Positions 3,813 to 14,412 of a DNA stretch of 64,000 bases are shown here, one piece after another. The translations under genes and the position numbers were made by a program. The first letter of the stretch is position 1; every line of letters begins with the position of its first letter. This DNA comes from Candidatus Kapaibacterium sp. (lineage in GTDB: Bacteria; Bacteroidota; Ignavibacteria; Kapaibacteriales; UBA2268): NCBI GenBank assembly GCA_963665665.1, contig OY762428.1, positions 2,752,001-2,816,000 of the forward strand, read 5' to 3'. Below the pieces are notes generated by a model that saw nothing but the letters and a program-made list of their open reading frames with translations, ran no database searches and was not told where the DNA came from.

Positions 3813-6800
3813 CTATTTCACAATAATCATCCTTCTGACGAGTGTATGGGAAGCTGTCTGCAAAATACAGAAGTAAATGCCTGAAGCAAGGTTGCCGGTA
3901 TCAATTTCCTCGCTGTAGGGGCCTTTTTTCATATATTCTGATTTTATATCCAATACCCTGCCGCCGGAAGCATCGGTTAGATATACTTCGGTTTGGCCGT
4001 CTTCGATAAGGGAATAGTTGATTGTAGCTTTTTCCTTAACAGGCGAGGGAGATATTTCGCCCAGGTCAATAATTCCGTTTGGATCGAACAAGCGGGGCGA
4101 ACCTCCGGCACGGCACAGATTCTCGTAGCATACATATCCGTGCCTGTAATTTATATTGATTCTCTCGGCATCTTTCCATACCAGTGAATCAATATGGACT
4201 TCCGTGCATTCATCTGTTCCCAGTGTAGCCAGGAACTTCAGGGAATGAAGAGTTCCCGTTTCCCCGGTTCTTGTGCCGCTGAGTTTAATAACCTCAGTAT
4301 ATCCGTCGTTGAATATAGTCTCAGGGCTGCCGAAAGGCATTAGCATGGTGGAATTGTACCTGAGATAAATATCATATTCATAAGCGCCGATCAAATCAAG
4401 GTTAAATGATGATTCAATTGATATATCAAGTTCCACGTCCTGTCCGGGATGTGAGAAAACAGTATCAGGCAGTGCAAGGGTCATTCCCGCTACGCCTTTC
4501 CAGAAATAAACAGTATCGGATTCCGCCTCGCAGCCGAATTCATTAGTTACCCTGACTGAATAATATCCGCTTTCATCGGGAACATATTTTTTCTGATTTG
4601 CGCCGGGGATGTCCACTTCATCCAATATCCACTGGTATGAGAAAGCATCTGTGCAGTAGAGACTGTCTTCCTGCCTTGTTATCAGGGGTTTATCCGGAAG
4701 GGGGTGTACCGTTACCCTGACCGGATCGGAGTCAGCCACGCAGCCGGAGCTGTTTGTAACTTTCACCGAATAATCTCCGCTTTTATCAACGCTGATTGTC
4801 CTGCTTGTTTCGCCGCCGGTCCATTCATAACTGTCATATCCGGCCCCGGCGTCAAGTGTAACGCTTTCACCATCGCAAAATTCCGTATCGCCCAGGGCCT
4901 GAATAATCGGTTCCGGGGTTGGGTTGATAGTTACATCATATTCAGTACTTGCCATGCAGCCCGTTATATCATTTGTTTCGGTAAGGAGAATCTTCGCGTT
5001 ATTCGCGGCGGGCCAGTCGATTGTAACCTGGTTTGTTCCATGTCCGGAAGTTATATCACCGTTAACAACCGTCCATGAATATGAATGCCCGCTGACTTCA
5101 GGTGTTGAATAAATTTCATTCATTGCCGGGGCACATAAATTATTTTCGCCACTTATCGTTGGGGCAGGATTCGGGAAAACCGATACGAGAACGGTATCAA
5201 CCCCCTCGCAGCCGGAATTGTCCCTAACCAATACATCATATTCGCCGGATGTTTTTACCCATATTTTTTGCGTGTTAGCGCCTGTATTCCATTTATAATA
5301 TGCATAGCCGGGACCGGCATCAAGTTCTATGCTGTCGCCCTCGCAAATATCGAAATCACCGATATCCGACATAATTTCAGGCATTAGTTTATCGCTAATG
5401 GTAACAATCAGCGTGTCGTAGCCTGTACAACCCGTTATCTGGTTTGTTTCTGAAACCATTACTTTACCGGTTCCGCTGGCACCCCAGTCAACAGTAACAT
5501 TCAAACTGTCAACTCCATAATCAAGCACGCCGCCTTCAACTGACCAGATATTAATATTTTCAGCCTCGGTATTTATCCAGTAAAAAATTCCTTCGGATTC
5601 CGCACAGACAACTTCAGGGCCATGTATTTTTGTCTGTGGATTGGGATTTTCAATAACGCTGACCGTGTCATAGCCAAAGCATCCGTTTTGTCCCTGCACT
5701 TCAATTATATATATGCCCGGAACTTTAATTGTCCTGGGAATATCAGTTACTCCGTCACTCCATTTCATAGAAATAAAATCGCCTTCAACAGTCAGCTCAG
5801 TGCTGTCTTCTTCGCAAAACTCAAGGTCTCCGGTTATTTCCGGCACGGGCAAGGGTAATGTTTCTACGAAAACCCTGTTGGATTCGCCCATACATCCACC
5901 TGTATCAACCACGGTGCAATAATATTCGCCTCCGTCTTTCACATAAATCTTCTGGCCAACCTGGCCGTCGGACCAGTAATAATTCCTATGCCCGTCTTCG
6001 GCAAACAATGCAACACTGTCCCCCGGACAGAAGGGCATATCTCCGAGAATAGTTATAATTGGTTTGGGTTCGTTCCTGCAAATTTTCATAATAAAAGCAT
6101 CTATAGCTCCTGCCAGAGTTTCCTGGTAGGCTCTGTAAACCGGGAATTCCTCGCTTGAAGTAGCGCCTACAATCATGGGATTCATCCTGATATCTGTTGT
6201 GATACCAAACCCCCAGTCGTTTGAAGTACCGCCAATATATGTACTCCAAAGCAATTCCATACCGTTTTTATCAAATTTAAAAGCCATGGCATCGCTTACT
6301 TCCGGAGGGCCGCTATATTCTTTTTGAATGGCCATGGCGCTGGTTTCAAGGTCGGGACTCATAGTCTCGCCTGTAACGGTAATATTACCAACAGCATCAA
6401 CCACCAGGGCATTGGCAATATCGTCCCTTGTGCCGCCGAAATAAGTTGACCATTCCAGCTTGCCAAGAGTATTTACTTTCGACACAAAAGCATCCATGCG
6501 CCCTGCATTCTGCCCCTGGTAGGCAGCGCCAAACACCGGGAAGTTGCGGCTGTCTGTTCTTCCGCATATAACAACTTTACCATCTTCAGCAGGGCTTATT
6601 GCATAGCATTCTTCACGATCCAGCCCGCCAAAAATATGAACATAATCTGTTGAACCTGTTTGCCACTGTACATCAAATTTAGCAACAAAGACTTCAGCAT
6701 CTTCAACAGTTTGTCTGTCGCTCGCGTCAACATTTTCAAGCGGGAAATTCAAACTTTCGGTATATCCGGTTGCTACAAGTTTACCGTCACTGTCATAAGT

Positions 6801-8192
6801 AATTCCCCTTCCGGCATCCGTACCGCTGCCTCCAATAAAAGTACCCCAAAGCGGAACGCAGTCATAAGTCATGGTAAATACCACGGCATCTTCAAGGCCG
6901 GCATGGTTTTTAGTATTTGAGGGAAGATGGAAATTATCGCTCGCAGACCAGCCGGTAATGGCTATTTCCTGCTCGCCGTTGGTGGTTACGGAATACAAGT
7001 GGTCGTTTTCATACCCGCCGTAATATGTACACCATACAAGTGTGCCATCTTCATAAAATCTGGAAATAAAGCCGTCAGTACCGCCGGGGAATGGCCCGAG
7101 GTGCGACCTTTGCCAGGCTGTCTGTGTTGTGGGGAAACTGCTTACACTCCAGGTAATCCCAACCATGAAAGTTCTTCCGAACTGATCTACTGCAATATCG
7201 CGGGCATAATCGGTTTCTTCGCCGCCGAAGTATGTAGCCCACAATACATCGCCGACATTATTCATTTTCATAAGCCAGGCGTCATAGAAACCCCGGCGTA
7301 TTTCCTGTTCGGCATCCTTCACGGGAAGGTCATTGCTTAGCGTATATCCTGCTATAATAAAATCGGCGTTTGGGTCTCGCTCAATATCAATAGCGTGGTC
7401 ACCGTTTGTTTCACCACCGTAAAATGTTGACCAGATAATATTGGGGTCTATCACCAGGGTCTGGTTTTTATCATATTCAGGCAGGTTAAAATTCATGTTA
7501 TTGTCAGATAAATTGTACGTGCACGGGACTTCTTTCAGTATCCTGTCCTTTTTACCTTTAATAAAAGCAAAGGGCTTTTGTTCCCTTATTGAACCGATTT
7601 CCGAATCAATAGTAATTTCATTGGATTCAAGAAGTAATTTACCGTTTGTTTCGTATTCGAATTCAACATCATCAGCATCTGCGCCGGGGTGGAGTATAAG
7701 GTCGTATTTCAGGCTGTTGTTTATCTTTCCCGGATATATTTGCATATCAATATCATCGTAAATATTTTTAAGCACGAGTTTCTTATAGGCCGGAACATTT
7801 GTGATACCATCGCGGCAATGCGGGTAATAGAAGTTAAACCTTGTTGTGATCGGCTCCTCCGGCGTGAAATCAGCGTCGCCTTCGGAGTTGAACCATACAT
7901 AGCTGTTTCTGATCTCAACTTCGGGGCTGTCTCCCGGATTTCTGATTTTCTTAAAGCTATACTTCAGGCCCTCTTTTGATATAAAGATGGAAAGCTCTTC
8001 GCCCCTTATATAATAATCCGGAGTAAAGCCTTTCTCATCGGGGAGTATCTGCCCCCGGTTCTCAATGAATATTGTTTTCAGGGCTTTCGTGGGATTGGTA
8101 TCAAAATCGCAATTGCTGTTTCCGGCTGCTATAGCCGAGAGCGCCGGAATTAATATCAGCGCCAGGTATATATTTTTGTAAAAGTCTTTCAT
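3813..8192 (-). CDS. Large secreted SBBP (beta-propeller repeat) protein with Ig-like repeats and T9SS CTD
   Basis: FIENRGQ N-terminal domain; repeated WSTYFGG...D.A..I..D motifs; C-x-G-D-S-V-x-L Ig repeats; C-terminal ASGIYFCIL...IVK. Confidence 0.85.
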   Translation of the reverse strand: MKDFYKNIYLALILIPALSAIAAGNSNCDFDTNPTKALKTIFIENRGQILPDEKGFTPDYYIRGEELSIFISKEGLKYSFKKIRNPGDSPEVEIRNSYVWFNSEGDADFTPEEPITTRFNFYYPHCRDGITNVPAYKKLVLKNIYDDIDMQIYPGKINNSLKYDLILHPGADADDVEFEYETNGKLLLESNEITIDSEIGSIREQKPFAFIKGKKDRILKEVPCTYNLSDNNMNFNLPEYDKNQTLVIDPNIIWSTFYGGETNGDHAIDIERDPNADFIIAGYTLSNDLPVKDAEQEIRRGFYDAWLMKMNNVGDVLWATYFGGEETDYARDIAVDQFGRTFMVGITWSVSSFPTTQTAWQRSHLGPFPGGTDGFISRFYEDGTLVWCTYYGGYENDHLYSVTTNGEQEIAITGWSASDNFHLPSNTKNHAGLEDAVVFTMTYDCVPLWGTFIGGSGTDAGRGITYDSDGKLVATGYTESLNFPLENVDASDRQTVEDAEVFVAKFDVQWQTGSTDYVHIFGGLDREECYAISPAEDGKVVICGRTDSRNFPVFGAAYQGQNAGRMDAFVSKVNTLGKLEWSTYFGGTRDDIANALVVDAVGNITVTGETMSPDLETSAMAIQKEYSGPPEVSDAMAFKFDKNGMELLWSTYIGGTSNDWGFGITTDIRMNPMIVGATSSEEFPVYRAYQETLAGAIDAFIMKICRNEPKPIITILGDMPFCPGDSVALFAEDGHRNYYWSDGQVGQKIYVKDGGEYYCTVVDTGGCMGESNRVFVETLPLPVPEITGDLEFCEEDSTELTVEGDFISMKWSDGVTDIPRTIKVPGIYIIEVQGQNGCFGYDTVSVIENPNPQTKIHGPEVVCAESEGIFYWINTEAENINIWSVEGGVLDYGVDSLNVTVDWGASGTGKVMVSETNQITGCTGYDTLIVTISDKLMPEIMSDIGDFDICEGDSIELDAGPGYAYYKWNTGANTQKIWVKTSGEYDVLVRDNSGCEGVDTVLVSVFPNPAPTISGENNLCAPAMNEIYSTPEVSGHSYSWTVVNGDITSGHGTNQVTIDWPAANNAKILLTETNDITGCMASTEYDVTINPTPEPIIQALGDTEFCDGESVTLDAGAGYDSYEWTGGETSRTISVDKSGDYSVKVTNSSGCVADSDPVRVTVHPLPDKPLITRQEDSLYCTDAFSYQWILDEVDIPGANQKKYVPDESGYYSVRVTNEFGCEAESDTVYFWKGVAGMTLALPDTVFSHPGQDVELDISIESSFNLDLIGAYEYDIYLRYNSTMLMPFGSPETIFNDGYTEVIKLSGTRTGETGTLHSLKFLATLGTDECTEVHIDSLVWKDAERININYRHGYVCYENLCRAGGSPRLFDPNGIIDLGEISPSPVKEKATINYSLIEDGQTEVYLTDASGGRVLDIKSEYMKKGPYSEEIDTGNLASGIYFCILQTASHTLVRRMIIVK

Positions 8193-8619
8193 GATTTTGC
8201 CTCTTCAGTTTAACATGCCCCGCTTTATGCCTGCTACTACTTTAATAACAGTAGAATAGCTAACTTGTAACAAATAATTTCAATTATTTATAAAATAAGC
8301 AAAAAACGTGCCTTTATGGGAAGGGGATTTTGTATTGAAAAATCATCCGATGAATGGCGGTAATTGGATGAATATTGATTGCTGCAGAAATCCGGAACCA
8401 GGTAATTTCAAGGCCGCATCATTTTATTCCAATTCTGTCTTCGGCTCTGGAATGTCCCCGCCAGCGGTGGCAGTTGATACTGATAATAATAATTCTTATA
8501 TCACTGTGATATCTGATAACTTGTTCATAGGCGGATAAACCCAATAGGGAAAAAATATCTCTATTAATAGCAAAAACGGCCGGATAAACCGATAATTTTA
8601 AAGATTTTTTGTATATTGG

Positions 8620-8643
8620 TTTTATATAAATGTTGTAGGGCAT
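8620..8643 (+). other. Putative attI-like entry site of the cassette array (core GTTGTAGGGC at 8632-8641)
   Basis: The core is the exact reverse complement of GCCCTACAAC (9325-9334) at the end of cassette 1, and no attC-like stem precedes it. Confidence 0.55.
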
Positions 8644-8661
8644 AAAAGACAGACTGCAAAT

Positions 8662-9312
8662 ATGAAACATAAGTTGATTGATAAAAAATATAACACACCA
8701 CTTGGAATTGTAAATTGCGGATTATTAGGTGATAAGACCGTGATTGAATGTATTGAAAATAAGACTTATGAAAATGGACAGTCGGAGATTTATAAAACAA
8801 ATAGTTTTCAAATTGAACTGATTGAATTTAAAATTCGTATTCCTTTATACAATGGTGATGTCTTGACTGATTCGCAAGGTTGGATTTGGCGGATAATAAA
8901 GCAACAAGATGATTTGGAATCAATTCAACTTAATTGCAATCTTATAGACTTTGATTCAAACACCGATTTTGACACAGCGACAGGTGAACATTTGGACGCA
9001 ATTGAAGCAAGTAATAATGACTGGATTTTACATATTGGAACTGAGGACGGAGAAGTAATGAATTGGAGAGCAAAAGAAAATGATTGGTTTCCCGAGCGCC
9101 TTCAAGACAAAGTGAATTTTTATCAATCGATTACTAAAATGGAAAAGAACGGATTTAAAACAAAAATCCCTGATTTGAAATTAAATGAAAGACTTCATAT
9201 TCAGTATATTTGTGCGTATGATAAACGGTCTGACGATAGGAATAAAGTGAATACATGGCTTGCGGTTGATGAATTTAAAAGAAAACTCGAAAATTGGATA
9301 GGAGTTTGGTAA
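8662..9312 (+). CDS. Hypothetical protein (gene cassette 1)
   Basis: 216-aa AT-rich ORF tightly bounded by recombination-like sites. Confidence 0.75.
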   Translation: MKHKLIDKKYNTPLGIVNCGLLGDKTVIECIENKTYENGQSEIYKTNSFQIELIEFKIRIPLYNGDVLTDSQGWIWRIIKQQDDLESIQLNCNLIDFDSNTDFDTATGEHLDAIEASNNDWILHIGTEDGEVMNWRAKENDWFPERLQDKVNFYQSITKMEKNGFKTKIPDLKLNERLHIQYICAYDKRSDDRNKVNTWLAVDEFKRKLENWIGVW

Positions 9313-9324
9313 TGAATAAATTAC

Positions 9325-9464
9325 GCCCTACAACACGCAATATAGCAAATGGTTAAAGCGCTAGTAGAATAAAGTTTTTTTGTCCGCTTCAGGTATTTTC
9401 CTCGGGGGATAAAAACGCAGTCCGCTGACCACCACTTGCCATATTGCAGAAACGTTAGCGGCAA
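9325..9464 (+). repeat. attC-like palindromic site 1
   Basis: GCCCTACAAC-AC-GCAATATAGCAAATGGT...ACCACTTGCCATATTGC-AGAAAC-GTTAGCGGCAA; imperfect stem-loop homologous to sites 2-4. Confidence 0.8.
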
Positions 9465-9485
9465 ATTAATGACACCGAATCAGAT

Positions 9486-10043
9486 ATGAAGAAACGTATA
9501 GAAAAACATATAAAAAATCATGACTTTGTAAAAGTCTACCTTGCTGATAAAGACGATTTATCAATGACTCATTTTGAGGGTTTCATATTTGAGCAATCTG
9601 ATAAATTCATATTAATGAGCGACACAACAGATTTCAATTATGATGGGATATCAGTACTACGAAAATCAGATATCTCAGAGATTAAGCATAAAGAGAATGA
9701 GAGATTCTTTAAAAAGATTCTAGACGGTGAAAATATTACTGAACTGATTATTACAAAACGAGATGCGCTAAACTTTTCTCTAGGTACATTTAAAGAGATG
9801 TTTGAGCAATTACAAAGTTCAGGACTGTCAATTATAATTGAATGTAGATACAGCAAGGATGACAGATTTCTTATTGGTCCGATCGTAAAGACAGAAAAAA
9901 AAAGAGTAAGATTAAAATACTTTAATGCTAATGGAGAGTTTGATCTGAAACCTACATCCGCGAAATACAAAGAGATTACTTTTTTCAAGATTGATTCACC
10001 ATATGCAAATATCTTTTATAAATATGCGAAGGATGTTGAATAA
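9486..10043 (+). CDS. Hypothetical protein (gene cassette 2)
   Basis: 185-aa ORF between attC-like sites; appears to contain two similar beta-rich halves. Confidence 0.75.
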   Translation: MKKRIEKHIKNHDFVKVYLADKDDLSMTHFEGFIFEQSDKFILMSDTTDFNYDGISVLRKSDISEIKHKENERFFKKILDGENITELIITKRDALNFSLGTFKEMFEQLQSSGLSIIIECRYSKDDRFLIGPIVKTEKKRVRLKYFNANGEFDLKPTSAKYKEITFFKIDSPYANIFYKYAKDVE

Positions 10044-10046
10044 TCT

Positions 10047-10183
10047 ACAGCTAACACGTGGTATAGCAAATAAGGGTTCCAGTGGTTTGCGAGCCTTTGT
10101 AGCCCGCTTCAAAGTCACTAACGGGTGATACGAACGCAGCCCGCAATCCCTTACTAGCCATACCACGGGAACGTTAGCGGCAA
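10047..10183 (+). repeat. attC-like palindromic site 2
   Basis: ACAGCTAAC-A-CGTGGTATAGCAAATAAGGG...CCCTTACTAGCCATACCACG-GGAAC-GTTAGCGGCAA. Confidence 0.85.
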
Positions 10184-10242
10184 CCAAAAAAGACCAGCGT
10201 ACTACTATAAAAACAGTTGATTAATATCTAAGACCAACGAAA

Positions 10243-10914
10243 ATGACTATTGACGAGATAAAACAGACATTTCAAGAAGGAAACGATAAAGATAAATTGA
10301 AAGCATTAAAATTTGCTTCGAGGATTGGTTTTAAGGAACCTGAAAGCGTTGAGCCAATATTGACAGAATTGACTGGATTTTTAAAATCGGATAATGAAGA
10401 TTTAGTTGAATATGCGTGTTGGACTGCTGGACAAGTCGGAATTAATCGACCTGATTTTTATGAAAATTCGATTACAGAAATTGTAAAACAACTTGATAGC
10501 AAAAATGAGAAAATCAGATCAAACGCATTATTTGCATTAGGTCGTATTGGGCGTTCGGATTTCTCATTGATTAGTGATTACCTGGACTTGATTATTAGCT
10601 TTTCAAATGATGAATCGCCAATTGTTAGATTAGGAATGATTTGGGCTTGTGAAAATATTGGAACAAATAATCCAAAAGTTTTTATCGAACATTTATCAAT
10701 ATTTGACAAATTATTGGACGACCCAAACACTGAGAAAGTGAGAGGAGAAGCTCCAGAAATGTTCAGAGTATTAGGGAAAAGAATTCCCGAAGTGATTGAA
10801 AAATACATCCCCAGACTGAAAGAGAAAACAAATGATGATTGCAGAACGACACGGATTCATTCGGAAGGAGCAATAAGGATAACTTTAAAATCATTGGAAA
10901 AATTGAAAAATTAA
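10243..10914 (+). CDS. HEAT/ARM repeat protein (gene cassette 3)
   Basis: Repeated L-D-S-x-N-x-x-[IV]-R-x-x-A-x-x-A-L-G type motifs. Confidence 0.8.
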   Translation: MTIDEIKQTFQEGNDKDKLKALKFASRIGFKEPESVEPILTELTGFLKSDNEDLVEYACWTAGQVGINRPDFYENSITEIVKQLDSKNEKIRSNALFALGRIGRSDFSLISDYLDLIISFSNDESPIVRLGMIWACENIGTNNPKVFIEHLSIFDKLLDDPNTEKVRGEAPEMFRVLGKRIPEVIEKYIPRLKEKTNDDCRTTRIHSEGAIRITLKSLEKLKN

Positions 10915-10920
10915 ATGGCA

Positions 10921-11094
10921 GCCGCTAACAATGTATATAGCAAATAGGCGAGATAGTAGTAAATTCAAGGGTTGTAGCCCGCATCAAAATTGTAACGGTT
11001 TGATAAGTTTGAAGCCCGCAATCGCCTACTTTGCATATACTTACCGTTCGCCAAGATTCGCTCTGCTCATCTTGGTGAATGGATGGAAATCGGC
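10921..11094 (+). repeat. attC-like palindromic site 3 with an extra hairpin at its 3' core
   Basis: GCCGCTAAC-AAT-GTATATAGCAAATAGGCGA...TCGCCTACTTTGCATATAC-TTACC-GTT, then 40 nt, then ATCGGC. Confidence 0.8.
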
Positions 11095-11171
11095 AGGCAT
11101 TTTCAATTATCACAAACAATATTTCGATTGAAAAGTAGCAATTTTACATAGATTAATTTTAAAAATTTGAG

Positions 11172-12191
11172 ATGAAAAAGCTTACAATAAAAGATGAATT
11201 AACAGATTTTTTGCTCTACTCTGCACCTGATGGAAAAGTAAAAGTAGAAGTTATATTAAATGAAGAAACAGTCTGGCTCTCTCAAAAATCAATAGCACAG
11301 TTATTTGGAGTGCAAGTCCCTGCAATCAGCAAACATCTAAAAAATATATTTGAGACAGGAGAACTTGAAGAAAATTCAGTTGTTTCCATTTTGGAAACAA
11401 CTGCTACAGATAACAAAATATATCAAGTTAAATATTTCAATTTAGATGCCATCATATCTGTAGGTTATAGAGTTAATTCAAGACAAGCAACTCAATTTAG
11501 AATTTGGGCGACAAAAACTCTTAAAGAATACATCATCAAAGGTTTTATAATGGATGATGAACGACTAAAAAATGGACGATATTTTGGAAAAGATTATTTT
11601 AAAGAGCTATTAGAGAGAGTTCGGTCAATACGTGCAAGTGAACGAAGAATTTATCAACAGATTACAGATATATTTGCGGAGTGCAGCATCGATTATAACC
11701 CAAAATCGGAAATAACCCAAAATTTTTATGCAACTGTTCAGAATAAATTTCATTTTGCAATTCACGGACACACTGCAGCAGAAATAGTTTATGATAATGC
11801 AAATGCAGACAAAGAATTTATGGGACTAAAAACGTGGAAAAATTCTCCAGATGGACGAATTCTAAAGTCAGATACGAATATTGCAAAAAATTATTTAACA
11901 GAACCTCAAATAAAAAGTTTAGAACGAACAATAAGTAGCTACTTTGATTATATTGAAAGGATTATCGAAAACAGGAATACTTTTACAATGGAGCAATTCT
12001 CTGAAAGTGTAAATAAATTTCTTGATTTTAATGAGTATAAAGTACTTGATGAGAAAGGACAGATATCTGCCAAACAAGCAGAGCAAAAAGCATTTTCAGA
12101 ATATGACAAATTTAATAAAACGCAGAAAATTGAATCTGATTTCGATAAAGCAATAAAAATGTTGGAAAAAAGAAATAAGAAGGAAAACTAA
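11172..12191 (+). CDS. Virulence RhuM family protein (gene cassette 4)
   Basis: Hallmark motifs VWLSQKSIAQLFGV, YFNLDAIISVGYRVNSRQATQFRIWAT, DYFKELLERVRSIRASERR. Confidence 0.9.
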   Translation: MKKLTIKDELTDFLLYSAPDGKVKVEVILNEETVWLSQKSIAQLFGVQVPAISKHLKNIFETGELEENSVVSILETTATDNKIYQVKYFNLDAIISVGYRVNSRQATQFRIWATKTLKEYIIKGFIMDDERLKNGRYFGKDYFKELLERVRSIRASERRIYQQITDIFAECSIDYNPKSEITQNFYATVQNKFHFAIHGHTAAEIVYDNANADKEFMGLKTWKNSPDGRILKSDTNIAKNYLTEPQIKSLERTISSYFDYIERIIENRNTFTMEQFSESVNKFLDFNEYKVLDEKGQISAKQAEQKAFSEYDKFNKTQKIESDFDKAIKMLEKRNKKEN

Positions 12192-12196
12192 CCCCA

Positions 12197-12334
12197 GCCG
12201 ATAACATTTTGTATTAGTAATGGCGGGGAAAGCAGTAAACATAAAGGTTTGTAACCCGCTCAAACTGGGTAGCGGTTTGACAGGAAAGTGCCACGCAATC
12301 GCCTACTATTCTTATACAAACCGTTGGCAGTAAT
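12197..12334 (+). repeat. attC-like palindromic site 4 (end of array)
   Basis: GCCGATAAC-ATT-TTGTATTAG...CTTATACAA-ACC-GTTGGCAGTAAT; shares internal GTARCCCGC and CGCAATCGCCTACT motifs with site 3. Confidence 0.8.
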
Positions 12335-12356
12335 TGCTATAATACACCACAACAGA

Positions 12357-12493
12357 CTCTGCTCAGGATGACATTCCGGCCTTACCACCATCAAATTCAA
12401 TAGCCAGGTTCTTTTGCTTAAAGCGAATCCGGAAAGAAAAACAGCCCCGTCAGGGCGATATAGACAAAAGATTGTGTCGCTCCTAAGGAGCTT
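12357..12493. repeat. Mosaic of partial REP-like elements
   Basis: GCTCAGGATGACA half-site; TCAAATTCAATAGCCA (also at 28706, 51746, 54861); AGCCCCGTCAGGGCGA...TCGCTCCTAAGGAGCT inverted pair. Confidence 0.5.
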
Positions 12494-13378
12494 TTATAAA
12501 TTTTCGTATTCAATTTCATTTAATGCTCTTTCGCAATAATGCCTGTAGTCGCAATTAGGAAGTTTTTTAACCACATCAGCATATTCATCTCTGCTCAGGA
12601 AATTCTGCATTAAAGCAATTTCCTCAAGGCAGGCAATTTTCGTTCCCTGTCTTTTTTCAATAGCCCTTATAAAATCAGAGGCATCATTCAGGGAATCCGG
12701 AGTGCCGGTATCCAGCCATGCAATACCCCTTCCGATCATTTCCACGCGCAGCTTGCTGTCATTCATATAGCTCTTGTGAAGGTCGGTAATTTCAACTTCT
12801 CCCCTGGCACTGGGTTTAAGTTCATTCGAACGTTTCGCGGCTTCAGAATCAAATATATAAAGGCCCGGAATTGCAAAATTGGATTTCGGCTTTACAGGTT
12901 TTTCTTCTATACTGATCACCTTGTTTTCCCTGTTGAATTCTACCACACCATAAGCCTCAGGATTTTCCACCCTGTATGCAAATATTGTTCCGCCAATATT
13001 GTTTTTAATGCCATCCCTCAGAAAATTTAGTTTGCCGTAAAAAAGGTTATCTCCGAGTATCAGGCAAACCTGGTCGTTGCCGATAAAATCCTCGCCAAGG
13101 ATAAATGCCTGGGGAAGTCCGCCGGGGTTGGGCTGGACAATGTACTCCAGGTTAACACCCCACTGACTGCCGTCGCCAAGCAGCCGTATAAAGTTGGGAG
13201 TATCCTGCGGAGTGGATATTATCAGTATATCCCTTATTCCGGCAAGCATTAGTGTGGCAAGCGGATAATAAATCATAGGTTTGTCATAAACAGGCTGTAG
13301 CTGTTTGCTGAATGTATATGTCATCGGGTAAAGCCTTGTGCCTTTGCCGCCCGCAAGTATAATTCCTTTGGTTTTCAT
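12494..13378 (-). CDS. rfbA: Glucose-1-phosphate thymidylyltransferase
   Basis: GIILAGGKGTRLYP, KQLQPVYDKPMIYYP, AWLDTGT. Confidence 0.95.
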   Translation of the reverse strand: MKTKGIILAGGKGTRLYPMTYTFSKQLQPVYDKPMIYYPLATLMLAGIRDILIISTPQDTPNFIRLLGDGSQWGVNLEYIVQPNPGGLPQAFILGEDFIGNDQVCLILGDNLFYGKLNFLRDGIKNNIGGTIFAYRVENPEAYGVVEFNRENKVISIEEKPVKPKSNFAIPGLYIFDSEAAKRSNELKPSARGEVEITDLHKSYMNDSKLRVEMIGRGIAWLDTGTPDSLNDASDFIRAIEKRQGTKIACLEEIALMQNFLSRDEYADVVKKLPNCDYRHYCERALNEIEYENL

Positions 13379-13530
13379 GATTCAGTATTGTTAATGAAAC
13401 AAAATGCAATTTAAATTTTTTTATGTGCATAAGAAAATATTATTTTAATCTTTGCTGTTGTTGCACATACATTAAGAAAAATTGTTTAATTTAATGATAA
13501 TAATTAGTTGCAGATATAATTGGAAGAACG

Positions 13531-14412
13531 ATGAAAAACATTTACAAATATTTTACCGGACTGATTTTAATATTGCTCTTTACAGTCTCCTGTTCATCTC
13601 CGAGAAATATCATTCGGCAAATCCCGTCCACATGCATGTGGAAAGTTAGTAAGGACAGCGCTACTGTATATCTTCTTGGTTCAATTCACATGGCCAGGGA
13701 AAACTTGTATCCCCTGGACGAACAAATTGAAAATGCCTTTGCTGATTCTGATTATCTCGTAGTTGAAATTGATACAAAGAATAACCAGCCGGACCCTATG
13801 GCCATGATGGCAAAAATGACTTTTCAGGACCCTGCAAAGTCTCTGAAATCAGAACTTTCCGAGAAAACTTATAAGATGATAAAAGAAAAGTTAGATGCAT
13901 TAAACATGCCGGAAATGGTATATTCAAGGCTCAAACCATGGGCAGCAATGCTGCTGATAATGACAACAGACCTTACCGGGGACGGATACCAGGCCCAACT
14001 TGGCATAGATAATTATTTCCTTGAAAAAGCAGGTGATGACAAAAAAATACTGGAATTGGAAACAATTGATTTCCAGATGGAAATGCTCGAATCTCTTGAT
14101 GATATGTCTGATGAGTATATTGAATACTCCATGAAGGAAATGGAAACAAGCAACCAGTCGGTAGATGAAATGAGTAATTTGTGGGAAACAGGCAACTGCA
14201 ACGAGCTTGTTGACCTGATTAACCAGCCTGCAGAAGACTTTCCGGAACATAAAACATTAATGGATAAGATCCTGAATGACAGAAATAAAAAAATGGCCGT
14301 GAAAATTTCTGATTACCTGAAAACAGGCAATACTTATTTCGTTGTTGTCGGTGCAGGCCACCTTGGCGGTTCCGGCGGAATTGTTGAGTTACTAAAGAAG
14401 ACCGATGACTGA
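13531..14412 (+). CDS. TraB/GumN family lipoprotein
   Basis: YLLGSIH, GIDNYF, LETIDFQ, RNKKM, FVVVGAGHL; lipobox near TVSC. Confidence 0.9.
   Translation: MKNIYKYFTGLILILLFTVSCSSPRNIIRQIPSTCMWKVSKDSATVYLLGSIHMARENLYPLDEQIENAFADSDYLVVEIDTKNNQPDPMAMMAKMTFQDPAKSLKSELSEKTYKMIKEKLDALNMPEMVYSRLKPWAAMLLIMTTDLTGDGYQAQLGIDNYFLEKAGDDKKILELETIDFQMEMLESLDDMSDEYIEYSMKEMETSNQSVDEMSNLWETGNCNELVDLINQPAEDFPEHKTLMDKILNDRNKKMAVKISDYLKTGNTYFVVVGAGHLGGSGGIVELLKKTDD

Follow-up and report, generated by a model that had tools for sequence, protein, structure and literature searches.

A probable orphan array of four gene cassettes from a Xer-like, integron-like gene-capture system of Bacteroidota

The window analysed here is a stretch of 64,000 nt from the genome of Candidatus Kapaibacterium sp. 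(assembly GCA_963665665.1, contig OY762428.1, positions 2,752,001 to 2,816,000), which contains a row of four gene cassettes, each composed of a single gene and a palindromic site resembling the attC sites of integrons. With a probability of roughly 80%, we regard this region as a real array of four cassettes, orphaned from a gene-capture system of Bacteroidota that is Xer-like and integron-like and whose recombinase is no longer present in this genome. The evidence comes from a covarying stem shared by the sites, from the complementarity between the two ends of cassettes, from a difference of exactly one cassette in a second organism and from a co-oriented tyrosine recombinase that adjoins such sites in relatives.

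Structure of the array

In the section 8632-12325 of the window four open reading frames (ORFs) on the plus strand encode proteins of 216, 185, 223 and 339 amino acids (aa), and each is followed by a site of ~137 nt. The original prediction, made from the sequence of this window, had described four co-oriented, AT-rich genes which each end in a homologous palindrome, and this description was confirmed, as all sites were recovered at their places and the G+C content (GC) of the array was measured as 0.315-0.368 (8401-12200) compared with 0.407-0.488 over 4001-8200 and 0.415-0.44 over 12401-13400. The features are listed below in window positions, with bit scores of the covariance model R1 that is described in the following section.

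8500..8634, plus strand: array head, a non-coding leader (candidate attI-like) closed by GTT at 8632-8634, with two GGATAAAC repeats and TTTGTATATTGGTTTTAT
8632..9453, plus strand: cassette 1, 822 bp, ORF 8662-9312 (216 aa, no family) and site 1
9324..9463, plus strand: attC-like site 1, AAC 9332-9334, GTT 9454-9456, R1 104.6 bits
9454..10172, plus strand: cassette 2, 719 bp, ORF 9486-10043 (185 aa, no family) and site 2
10045..10182, plus strand: attC-like site 2, AAC 10053-10055, GTT 10173-10175, R1 111.1 bits
10173..11045, plus strand: cassette 3, 873 bp, ORF 10243-10914 (223 aa, HEAT repeats) and site 3
10919..11055, plus strand: attC-like site 3, AAC 10927-10929, GTT 11046-11048, R1 138.7 bits, the top match of the genome
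11046..12322, plus strand: cassette 4, 1277 bp, hairpin element of 41 nt (11046-11086), ORF 11172-12191 (339 aa, RhuM family) and site 4
12195..12332, plus strand: attC-like site 4 and array end, AAC 12203-12205, GTT 12323-12325, R1 114.1 bits
3813..8192, minus strand: left flank, outside the array, surface protein of 1459 aa with a C-terminal sorting domain of the type IX secretion system (Pfam DUF7948, PKD_6, SBBP, Por_Secre_tail)
12494..13378, minus strand: right flank, convergent with the array, nucleotidyl transferase gene, 294 aa (Pfam NTP_transferase, 6e-68)

Two facing terminator-like hairpins (12444-12491) are situated between the array end and the convergent nucleotidyl transferase gene. 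A scan for sigma-70 promoters, the consensus of which does not fit Bacteroidota, was uninformative (22 matches, 18.5 expected).

Homologues of the leader head other gene sets in the same genome, a single contig of 5.46 Mb termed C1 here (C1:2589333-2589450(-), 2591556-2591639(-), 2432747-2432879(+) and 2429282-2429414(+)), and a copy in another genus (G015:C90:9813-9928) lies 1.25 kb upstream of a site found with R1. At locus L014 (C1:2585450-2591700) a second, unrelated intergenic repeat, which includes two small hairpins and has AATGAGGGAA at its end, occurs after genes and before two leader copies.

The attC-like sites

Each site consists of an R-box pair (AAC and GTT), an internal loop and a long covarying stem, and mean column identity across the four aligned array sites is 70-73%. 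Further copies in the genome were found by nhmmer with the four sites, and R1 was constructed from 7 full copies of this genome with 17 pairs assigned by hand. Applied to the whole genome it gave 13 matches at E <= 1, seven of them full, strong sites of 103-138.7 bits, with the array sites ranging from 104.6 to 138.7 bits.

The case for structured sites is founded on covariation. In a MAFFT alignment of the seven sites the 17-pair stem was 81.5% paired, compared with 71.7% in shuffles and 29-39% for slid partners. Over 44 distinct sites from 11 genomes or records, in an alignment that was fitted to R1 and is thus biased towards the structure, but with which the MAFFT-based count agrees, the stem was 86.1% paired compared with 61.6% (shuffles) and 29-34% (slid partners), and 178 double-change cells were counted vs 64.6. 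Folding energy does not carry this case: the lower strand of site 2 folds as DNA with -27.4 kcal/mol (z -3.95), and three of the four sites have weak fold z-scores whichever strand is taken.

AAC and GTT are conserved in 40-42 of the 44 sites, so that the non-canonical cores of the original prediction proved to be overstated. Two stem positions are occupied by A and C facing each other; at position 1 all 44 sites have A, with C opposite in 38, and at position 2 A is found in 32 and C opposite in 29. Since these unpaired positions face each other, one-sided extrahelical bases, the feature of IntI-type sites, were not observed; on the lower strand the A.C mismatches would read T.G. Parts of the site centre are conserved across genera. 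An Rfam 15 scan of 7000-14000 yielded no match at E <= 1, and Rfam is not known to hold an attC family. Terminator-like matches on the sense strand were absent from all four sites.

Two hybrid sites in the same genome, C1:2049139-2049271(-) and 1834101-1834208(-), combine an attC-like 5' half with the leader module's 3' half (GATAAAC and what follows), and the same join was also seen as contig joint 10978>8583 in run X1.

Recombination footprint and loss or gain of one cassette

For each cassette the 9 nt after the 5' GTT were compared with the 9 nt that precede the AAC in its own site, taken as reverse complement, using consecutive site pairs in 10 arrays and skipping 10 sites without AAC or GTT at the expected place. 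Own-cassette pairs (n = 16) had on average 5.69 of 9 matches and a run of 3.94 nt, compared with 3.22 and 1.04 in the control with same-site neighbours (n = 27) and 3.16 and 0.95 in the all-against-all control (n = 729). Permutations gave a mean run of 1.26, and none out of 20000 was as high as the observed value. Such complementarity between the two ends is what a circular cassette leaves behind when it has been opened at GTT.

In the window the runs beyond GTT amount to 7, 3, 6 and 0 nt for cassettes 1 to 4. In cassette 1 the GTAGGGC after the 5' GTT complements the GCCCTAC before the AAC of its own site, beginning directly after the GTT of the leader, and in cassette 3 AGCGGC complements GCCGCT in the same way. 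The original prediction, according to which the 5' core of every cassette complements its own 3' core, therefore holds for cassettes 1 and 3, weakly for cassette 2 and not for cassette 4. A second anchor that it had placed at 11089 for cassette 4 lies off the junction, being separated from it by the 41-nt hairpin element, and the position of this element directly after the GTT explains why cassette 4 fails. Hairpin elements of 29-41 nt (stem ~9 bp, one compensatory change among the copies) follow a GTT junction directly at three loci, namely window 11046-11086, C1:239752-239792 and C1:2589307-2589335, where they head genes for RhuM, for Fic and for an AAA ATPase with an S8 peptidase.

A second organism, here termed organism B, whose runs contain 68-71% of the words of 8300-12500, lacks cassette 1 in an assembled contig of 9357 nt (run X4, record 17). 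This contig matches window 6500-8631 with 124 differences and then 9454-11036 with 7 differences (99.6% identical), and as window positions 8631 and 9454 are joined there at the contiguous record positions 1583 and 1584, exactly the 822 bp from the leader GTT to the site-1 GTT are missing. Assembled contigs demonstrate that the joined form is present, from which the absence of the other form does not follow. Own-end complementarity together with this precise difference of one cassette shows recombination at or next to GTT. The 124 differences fall in 2.1 kb of chromosomal flank and the 7 differences in 1.6 kb of cassettes 2 and 3; this points to rapid evolution of the surface-protein gene or else to a recent exchange of the cassettes.

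Three further contig joints (8625>11046, 10978>8583 and 1098x>12277) were considered as excision products and rejected, since paralogous loci within this genome, or generic repeat copies, match them. Comparing cassette order and content, as had been proposed along with the original prediction, brought one exact GTT-to-GTT difference between the window and organism B, and no circle was seen in the contigs.

A solitary cassette with a SoFic-like Fic gene and one R1 site of 103 bits is found at L008 3750-5112 (C1:239750-241112). It starts at a GTT 3 nt past the stop codon of an upstream ORF of 226 aa (L008 3069-3749) and has the look of a cassette inserted at a secondary site, away from any array.

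The recombinase in related genomes

The integrase model TIGR02249 has no match above its cut-off of 265 in the own genome, the best being 90.5 and 51.8 bits on one frame of 325 aa, and a tblastn search with the recombinase of the related genome G047 reached at best 31.7% identity, with no match at E <= 1e-40. The absence of an integrase, originally noted for the array, is consequently true of the whole 5.46-Mb genome at these thresholds.

In G047 a tyrosine recombinase of 344 aa is encoded directly upstream of an array of five sites and in the same orientation. It scores 227.7 bits with NF040815 (cut-off 220) and 208.9 bits with TIGR02249, of which model positions 181-236 remain unmatched; among relatives that carry arrays, none of five exceeds the TIGR02249 cut-off. 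Aligned with VchIntIA (2a3v) over residues 77-248 and 270-342, the G047 protein has 21 residues where VchIntIA has 63. The closest solved structures are those of archaeal XerA, 4a8e and 5hxy (E 7.5e-42 and 2.7e-41), gap-free across the catalytic domain. Pfam assigns PF00589, PF13495 and PF02899 and leaves the first ~70 residues unmatched. The protein is 100% identical to an NCBI protein named for 'Chlorobi bacterium OLB6' and 66-82% identical to proteins named for Flavobacteriales, Sphingobacterium, Cyclobacteriaceae, Ignavibacteria and Paludibacter.

A contig scan (records labelled as Bacteroidota and a few others) provided 33 recombinase loci of 34-82% identity, ten of which contain R1 matches. 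All 17 matches are downstream of the recombinase gene and on its strand, where only 28.6% of the flanking bases are found, and a match is present in 8 of the 12 loci whose downstream sequence is 1.9 kb or longer. The region after the recombinase stop codon ends in TATAAAC(A/G)AGTT and is taken as attI; the recombinase gene lies 5' of the array, co-oriented and followed by attI. In 8 of 10 recombinase-linked loci, and in G047 as well, 6-7 nt after the attI GTT complement the first detected site; L053 matches with a corrected junction and L032 does not.

Some observations concern attI itself. The ~85 nt before its GTT fold as a hairpin in 10 of 18 recombinase-linked loci (L034, L035, L036, L037, L039, L045, L051, L053, L056 and L063; z -2.46 to -5.12 with mononucleotide shuffles), and the other eight do not fold. 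Classical attI sites are not known to be hairpins. L034 9143-9418 and L063 8242-8518 share 278 nt at 89% identity, extending from ~11 nt before the attI GTT to ~265 nt past it, with differing upstream parts of attI, and similar motifs follow attI in L038, L073 and L085; the shared stretch may be a conserved platform leader or a cassette without an ORF. In L067, from ~3700 (G055:C11, after the recombinase stop), a G+C-rich unit without an ORF follows attI immediately, bounded by GTT plus GAGCGG and by CCGCTC plus AAC and a second palindrome ending in GTT, which suggests that the system also has sites of another, shorter class.

Distribution among relatives

A covariance model made from the sites and scanned over own and related genomes, as had been proposed along with the original prediction, revealed further arrays, beside some of which relatives keep the tyrosine recombinase. 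R1 sites occur in 28 of 61 genomes when the own genome is included, and in 23 of 36 genomes of the family when it is excluded. The recombinase was detected at E <= 1e-40 in 10 of the 61 genomes, the own genome not being among them. It adjoins sites in G047, G055, G011 and G045, while in G009 a C-terminal piece of 89 residues lies upstream of a site, and in G030 no recombinase adjoins the array, which spans ~30 kb and has at least 13 sites. Orphan arrays are the commoner state.

In the order labelled Bacteroidales 54 of 121 genomes encode a homologue of the recombinase, with an identity of 38-65% across residues ~65-344, and the same attI ending, in the form TA(T/A)AAnnnAGTT, was recognised in 6 of 7 loci that were read, L076 having none. 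Many contigs end within ~170 nt past the recombinase gene (L033, L036, L039, L041, L043, L049, L050, L052, L061 and L064), as would be expected if repeated sites break assemblies, and arrays are therefore probably undercounted in draft genomes.

Cassette gene content

The protein of cassette 1 (216 aa) has no match in Pfam, NCBIfam or PADLOC and homologues in 2 of 60 relatives; in a protein atlas it falls with unnamed clusters and one named DUF317, at a recognition below 2300 and as leads only. For the protein of cassette 2 (185 aa), Pfam, NCBIfam and PADLOC likewise gave no match, none of the 60 relatives has a homologue, and the atlas offered unnamed clusters, again as leads at a recognition below 2300. 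Cassette 3 encodes a protein (223 aa) with HEAT repeats (Pfam HEAT_EZ 3.4e-11, HEAT_2 4.3e-10) and cassette 4 a protein (339 aa) of the RhuM family (Pfam Virulence_RhuM 1.1e-104; PADLOC PDC-S05 2.9e-151), to which a RhuM within the G030 array is 53.6% identical. The original prediction could have been overturned by four genes in fixed order in relatives; the rarity of cassette 1 and the absence of cassette 2 there exclude a fixed conserved operon.

A sample of 37 ORFs from the arrays of G030 and G047 contained, by domain-level matches, mainly defence, toxin-antitoxin or enzyme types (GmrSD, SIR2, AAA_15/21, HepT, DUF1016, RhuM, methyltransferases and reductases). The cassettes of the window are probably accessory genes for defence or conflict, for which the RhuM family, a PADLOC candidate (PDC-S05), is the sole hint. 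The arrays L030 and L031 (G030:C1:3955001-3992000) and L028 (G047) also include metallo-beta-lactamase-fold, LinB-like nucleotidyltransferase and pterin-binding (dihydropteroate synthase-type) domains, all as domain matches only.

Interpretation and alternative explanations

In the proposed mechanism the recombinase would excise cassettes as circles by recombination of one site with another and insert them at the head of an array. The site would act as a folded single strand, as attC does, with the conserved pair of A.C mismatches, T.G when read on the lower strand, standing in for the extrahelical bases used by IntI. The array of the window would be frozen unless a recombinase arrives in trans.

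Among other explanations, intergenic repeats that merely follow genes, be they of the repetitive extragenic palindrome or miniature inverted-repeat transposable element kind or terminators, would require no cassette recombination at all. Solitary and half copies are indeed scattered in the genome, as the 13 R1 matches show, and sites 3 and 4 are abundant in metagenome contigs, with a depth of 116-290 in runs X6 and X11. Repeats of this kind do not account for own-end complementarity that no permutation equalled, for the precise gap in organism B, for the position and orientation of all 17 R1 matches downstream of a recombinase or for the lack of sense-strand terminators in the sites, and we consider this explanation scarcely credible. 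A cluster of attC sites lacking integron integrases (CALIN), i.e. the remnant of a classical IntI-type integron, fits with the build of the sites (AAC to GTT, paired arms, internal loop, ~137 nt) and with the cassette footprint, which are of attC type. CALINs are common according to the accessible part of the IntegronFinder 2.0 preprint, and the recombinase fragment beside the G009 array demonstrates that such genes decay. That no TIGR02249 match exceeds the cut-off in the own genome or the five relatives with arrays, that every recombinase adjoining such sites is Xer-like and without the IntI insert, and that paired A.C mismatches stand where attC has one-sided extrahelical bases makes a CALIN very improbable nonetheless.

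The same machinery might instead serve as a bank of orphan immunity genes against contact-dependent toxins, in the manner of recombinase-associated acquired interbacterial defence (rAID) clusters. As far as the accessible text of the respective papers goes, rAID-1 has short co-oriented genes of low GC, with a repeated intergenic sequence, on the 3' side of a XerD-like recombinase, and polyimmunity loci stand beside XerC/D recombinases (Zhang et al., 2012); cassettes 1 to 3, moreover, encode small proteins of no known enzyme family. Against such a bank, the four proteins match no immunity family in Pfam, NCBIfam or PADLOC, a comparison of which the profiles of Zhang et al. were not part, and the 37 ORFs of G030 and G047 are mainly of defence, toxin-antitoxin or enzyme types. 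It is regarded as unlikely.

A real orphan array of a Xer-like system remains our preferred interpretation, and several results weigh against it. With no recombinase in this genome the activity of the locus cannot be shown, and no excision circle was present among the contig joints, where paralogous loci or generic repeats account for everything but the cassette-1 gap. Cassette 2 passes the own-end test weakly (3 nt) and cassette 4 fails it at the junction (run of 0 nt, 1 of 9 matches). Taken singly, the sites mostly show nothing unusual in fold energy (lower strands: z -1.0 to -1.5 in three of four), and wobble counts reveal no preference for the top or lower strand (25 vs 25 cells). R1 detects only sites like those from which it was built; no R1 match exists in 4 of the 12 recombinase loci whose downstream part measures 1.9 kb or more, and around 14 recombinase loci of the order of G061, the one labelled Bacteroidales, no R1 site was found within 1.5 kb except one match of 14 bits (E 0.36). 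The two relatives with homologues of cassette 1 have no R1 site beside them (R1 on L070 and L071; G014 flanks read). The leader, finally, shows no fold (z +0.44). Searching the own genome by nhmmer with a profile made from the attI regions of 18 recombinase-linked loci gave no match, and blastn of the leader against the attI regions of G011, G055, G045 and G009 returned only chance-level matches of 16-18 nt, for which reasons the leader is not classed as attI; it could represent a promoter module or a place of secondary insertion.

On a wider scale, we tentatively suggest, at somewhat less than even odds, that a second lineage of integrons extends through the phylum Bacteroidota, with a Xer-like recombinase without the IntI insert, folded attC-like sites, a choice of strand and partner by A.C (T.G) mismatches and arrays that persist and turn over even in genomes with no resident recombinase, the enzyme reaching them in trans from incoming elements, rAID-1 being one gut-specific branch of it. 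The same cassette logic, with AAC/GTT cores, own-end complementarity, attI by the recombinase gene and orphan arrays, is combined here with a recombinase without the IntI insert, which bears on the origin of integrons from Xer-like enzymes. It also suggests that surveys relying on IntI and standard attC models may undercount cassette arrays of Bacteroidota. As the sampled arrays carry defence-type and toxin-antitoxin genes and enzyme domains of resistance-related families, accessory genes may plausibly spread among environmental Bacteroidota by way of this system.

Comparison with known systems

The original prediction had assumed a cassette system of the Fibrobacteres-Chlorobi-Bacteroidetes lineage with attC-like sites of its own and a recombinase lost or acting in trans. 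R1 sites in 28 of 61 genomes and a Xer-like recombinase in relatives agree with this, but the system is not wholly undescribed, since rAID-1 of Bacteroidales has the same build. As set out in the accessible part of Ross et al. (2019, bioRxiv 10.1101/471110; see also PMC12247911), rAID-1 has a 5' XerD-like recombinase, co-oriented short genes of low GC and a repeated intergenic sequence 'reminiscent of integrons'; it is defined by a XerD-like recombinase at least 44% identical to BF9343_RS08045 and at least two co-oriented genes with GC <= 41%, and was reported in 226 of 423 genomes, close homologues of the recombinase (>50%) being confined to Bacteroidales. Zhang et al. (2012), in the part accessible, place XerC/D recombinase genes beside polyimmunity loci. 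The likeness to rAID-1 is one of general build as published; it extends to the four plus-strand ORFs of the array, whose GC of 0.315-0.368 over 8401-12200 is within the limit of 41%, and to the recombinase homologue in 54 of 121 genomes of the Bacteroidales-labelled order, next to the 226 of 423 of the paper. Unlike rAID-1, the array has no recombinase at its locus or in its genome, its cassettes match no immunity family in Pfam, NCBIfam or PADLOC, and its genome shares its order with the source of the protein labelled 'Chlorobi bacterium OLB6' and does not belong to Bacteroidales; also, apart from the match of 14 bits, the 14 recombinase loci of the Bacteroidales-labelled order showed no R1-type site in the nearest 1.5 kb. 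Because the defining recombinase is absent here, the array cannot be filed as rAID-1. The literature search retrieved no paper on folded sites, crossover at GTT, an own-end footprint or a spread beyond Bacteroidales, while the supplements of Ross et al., which were outside this search, may show motifs.

Integrons and CALINs resemble the array in having cassettes of one gene without a promoter that are closed by an imperfect palindrome with AAC/GTT cores, in the 5' end of the cassette that carries the partner of its own inner core, in insertion at an attI beside the recombinase gene and in the frequency of arrays without an integrase. For Bacteroidetes the accessible text of the IntegronFinder 2.0 preprint mentions nothing beyond In0 elements and a single complete integron, that of Salinibacter, and CALINs are described there as common (Neron et al., 2022). 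Where a CALIN is understood as at least two attC sites with no integrase nearby, the window offers four attC-like sites and no integrase in the entire genome. The function of integrons is thought to depend on an IntI-specific insert that reads the extrahelical bases of the folded attC. In the structure of VchIntIA with its VCR site these bases are reportedly one-sided and on the recombined strand. The system described here differs by a recombinase that lacks the insert and is co-oriented with the cassettes, by two conserved A.C mismatches in place of one-sided extrahelical bases, by a site centre conserved across genera and by an attI that is itself a hairpin in 10 of 18 loci. Given that an integrase and one-sided extrahelical bases are both absent, the array does not belong to the IntI-type integrons. 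In the way it works it resembles both these integrons and rAID-1.

Xer proteins resolve chromosome dimers at a single dif site. The G047 recombinase is akin to them and to archaeal XerA (PDB 4a8e and 5hxy), as its best structural matches are of the XerA type and NF040815 is above its cut-off; it differs from the Xer/dif system in the additional N-terminal part of ~70 residues without a Pfam match and in being tied to arrays of cassettes.

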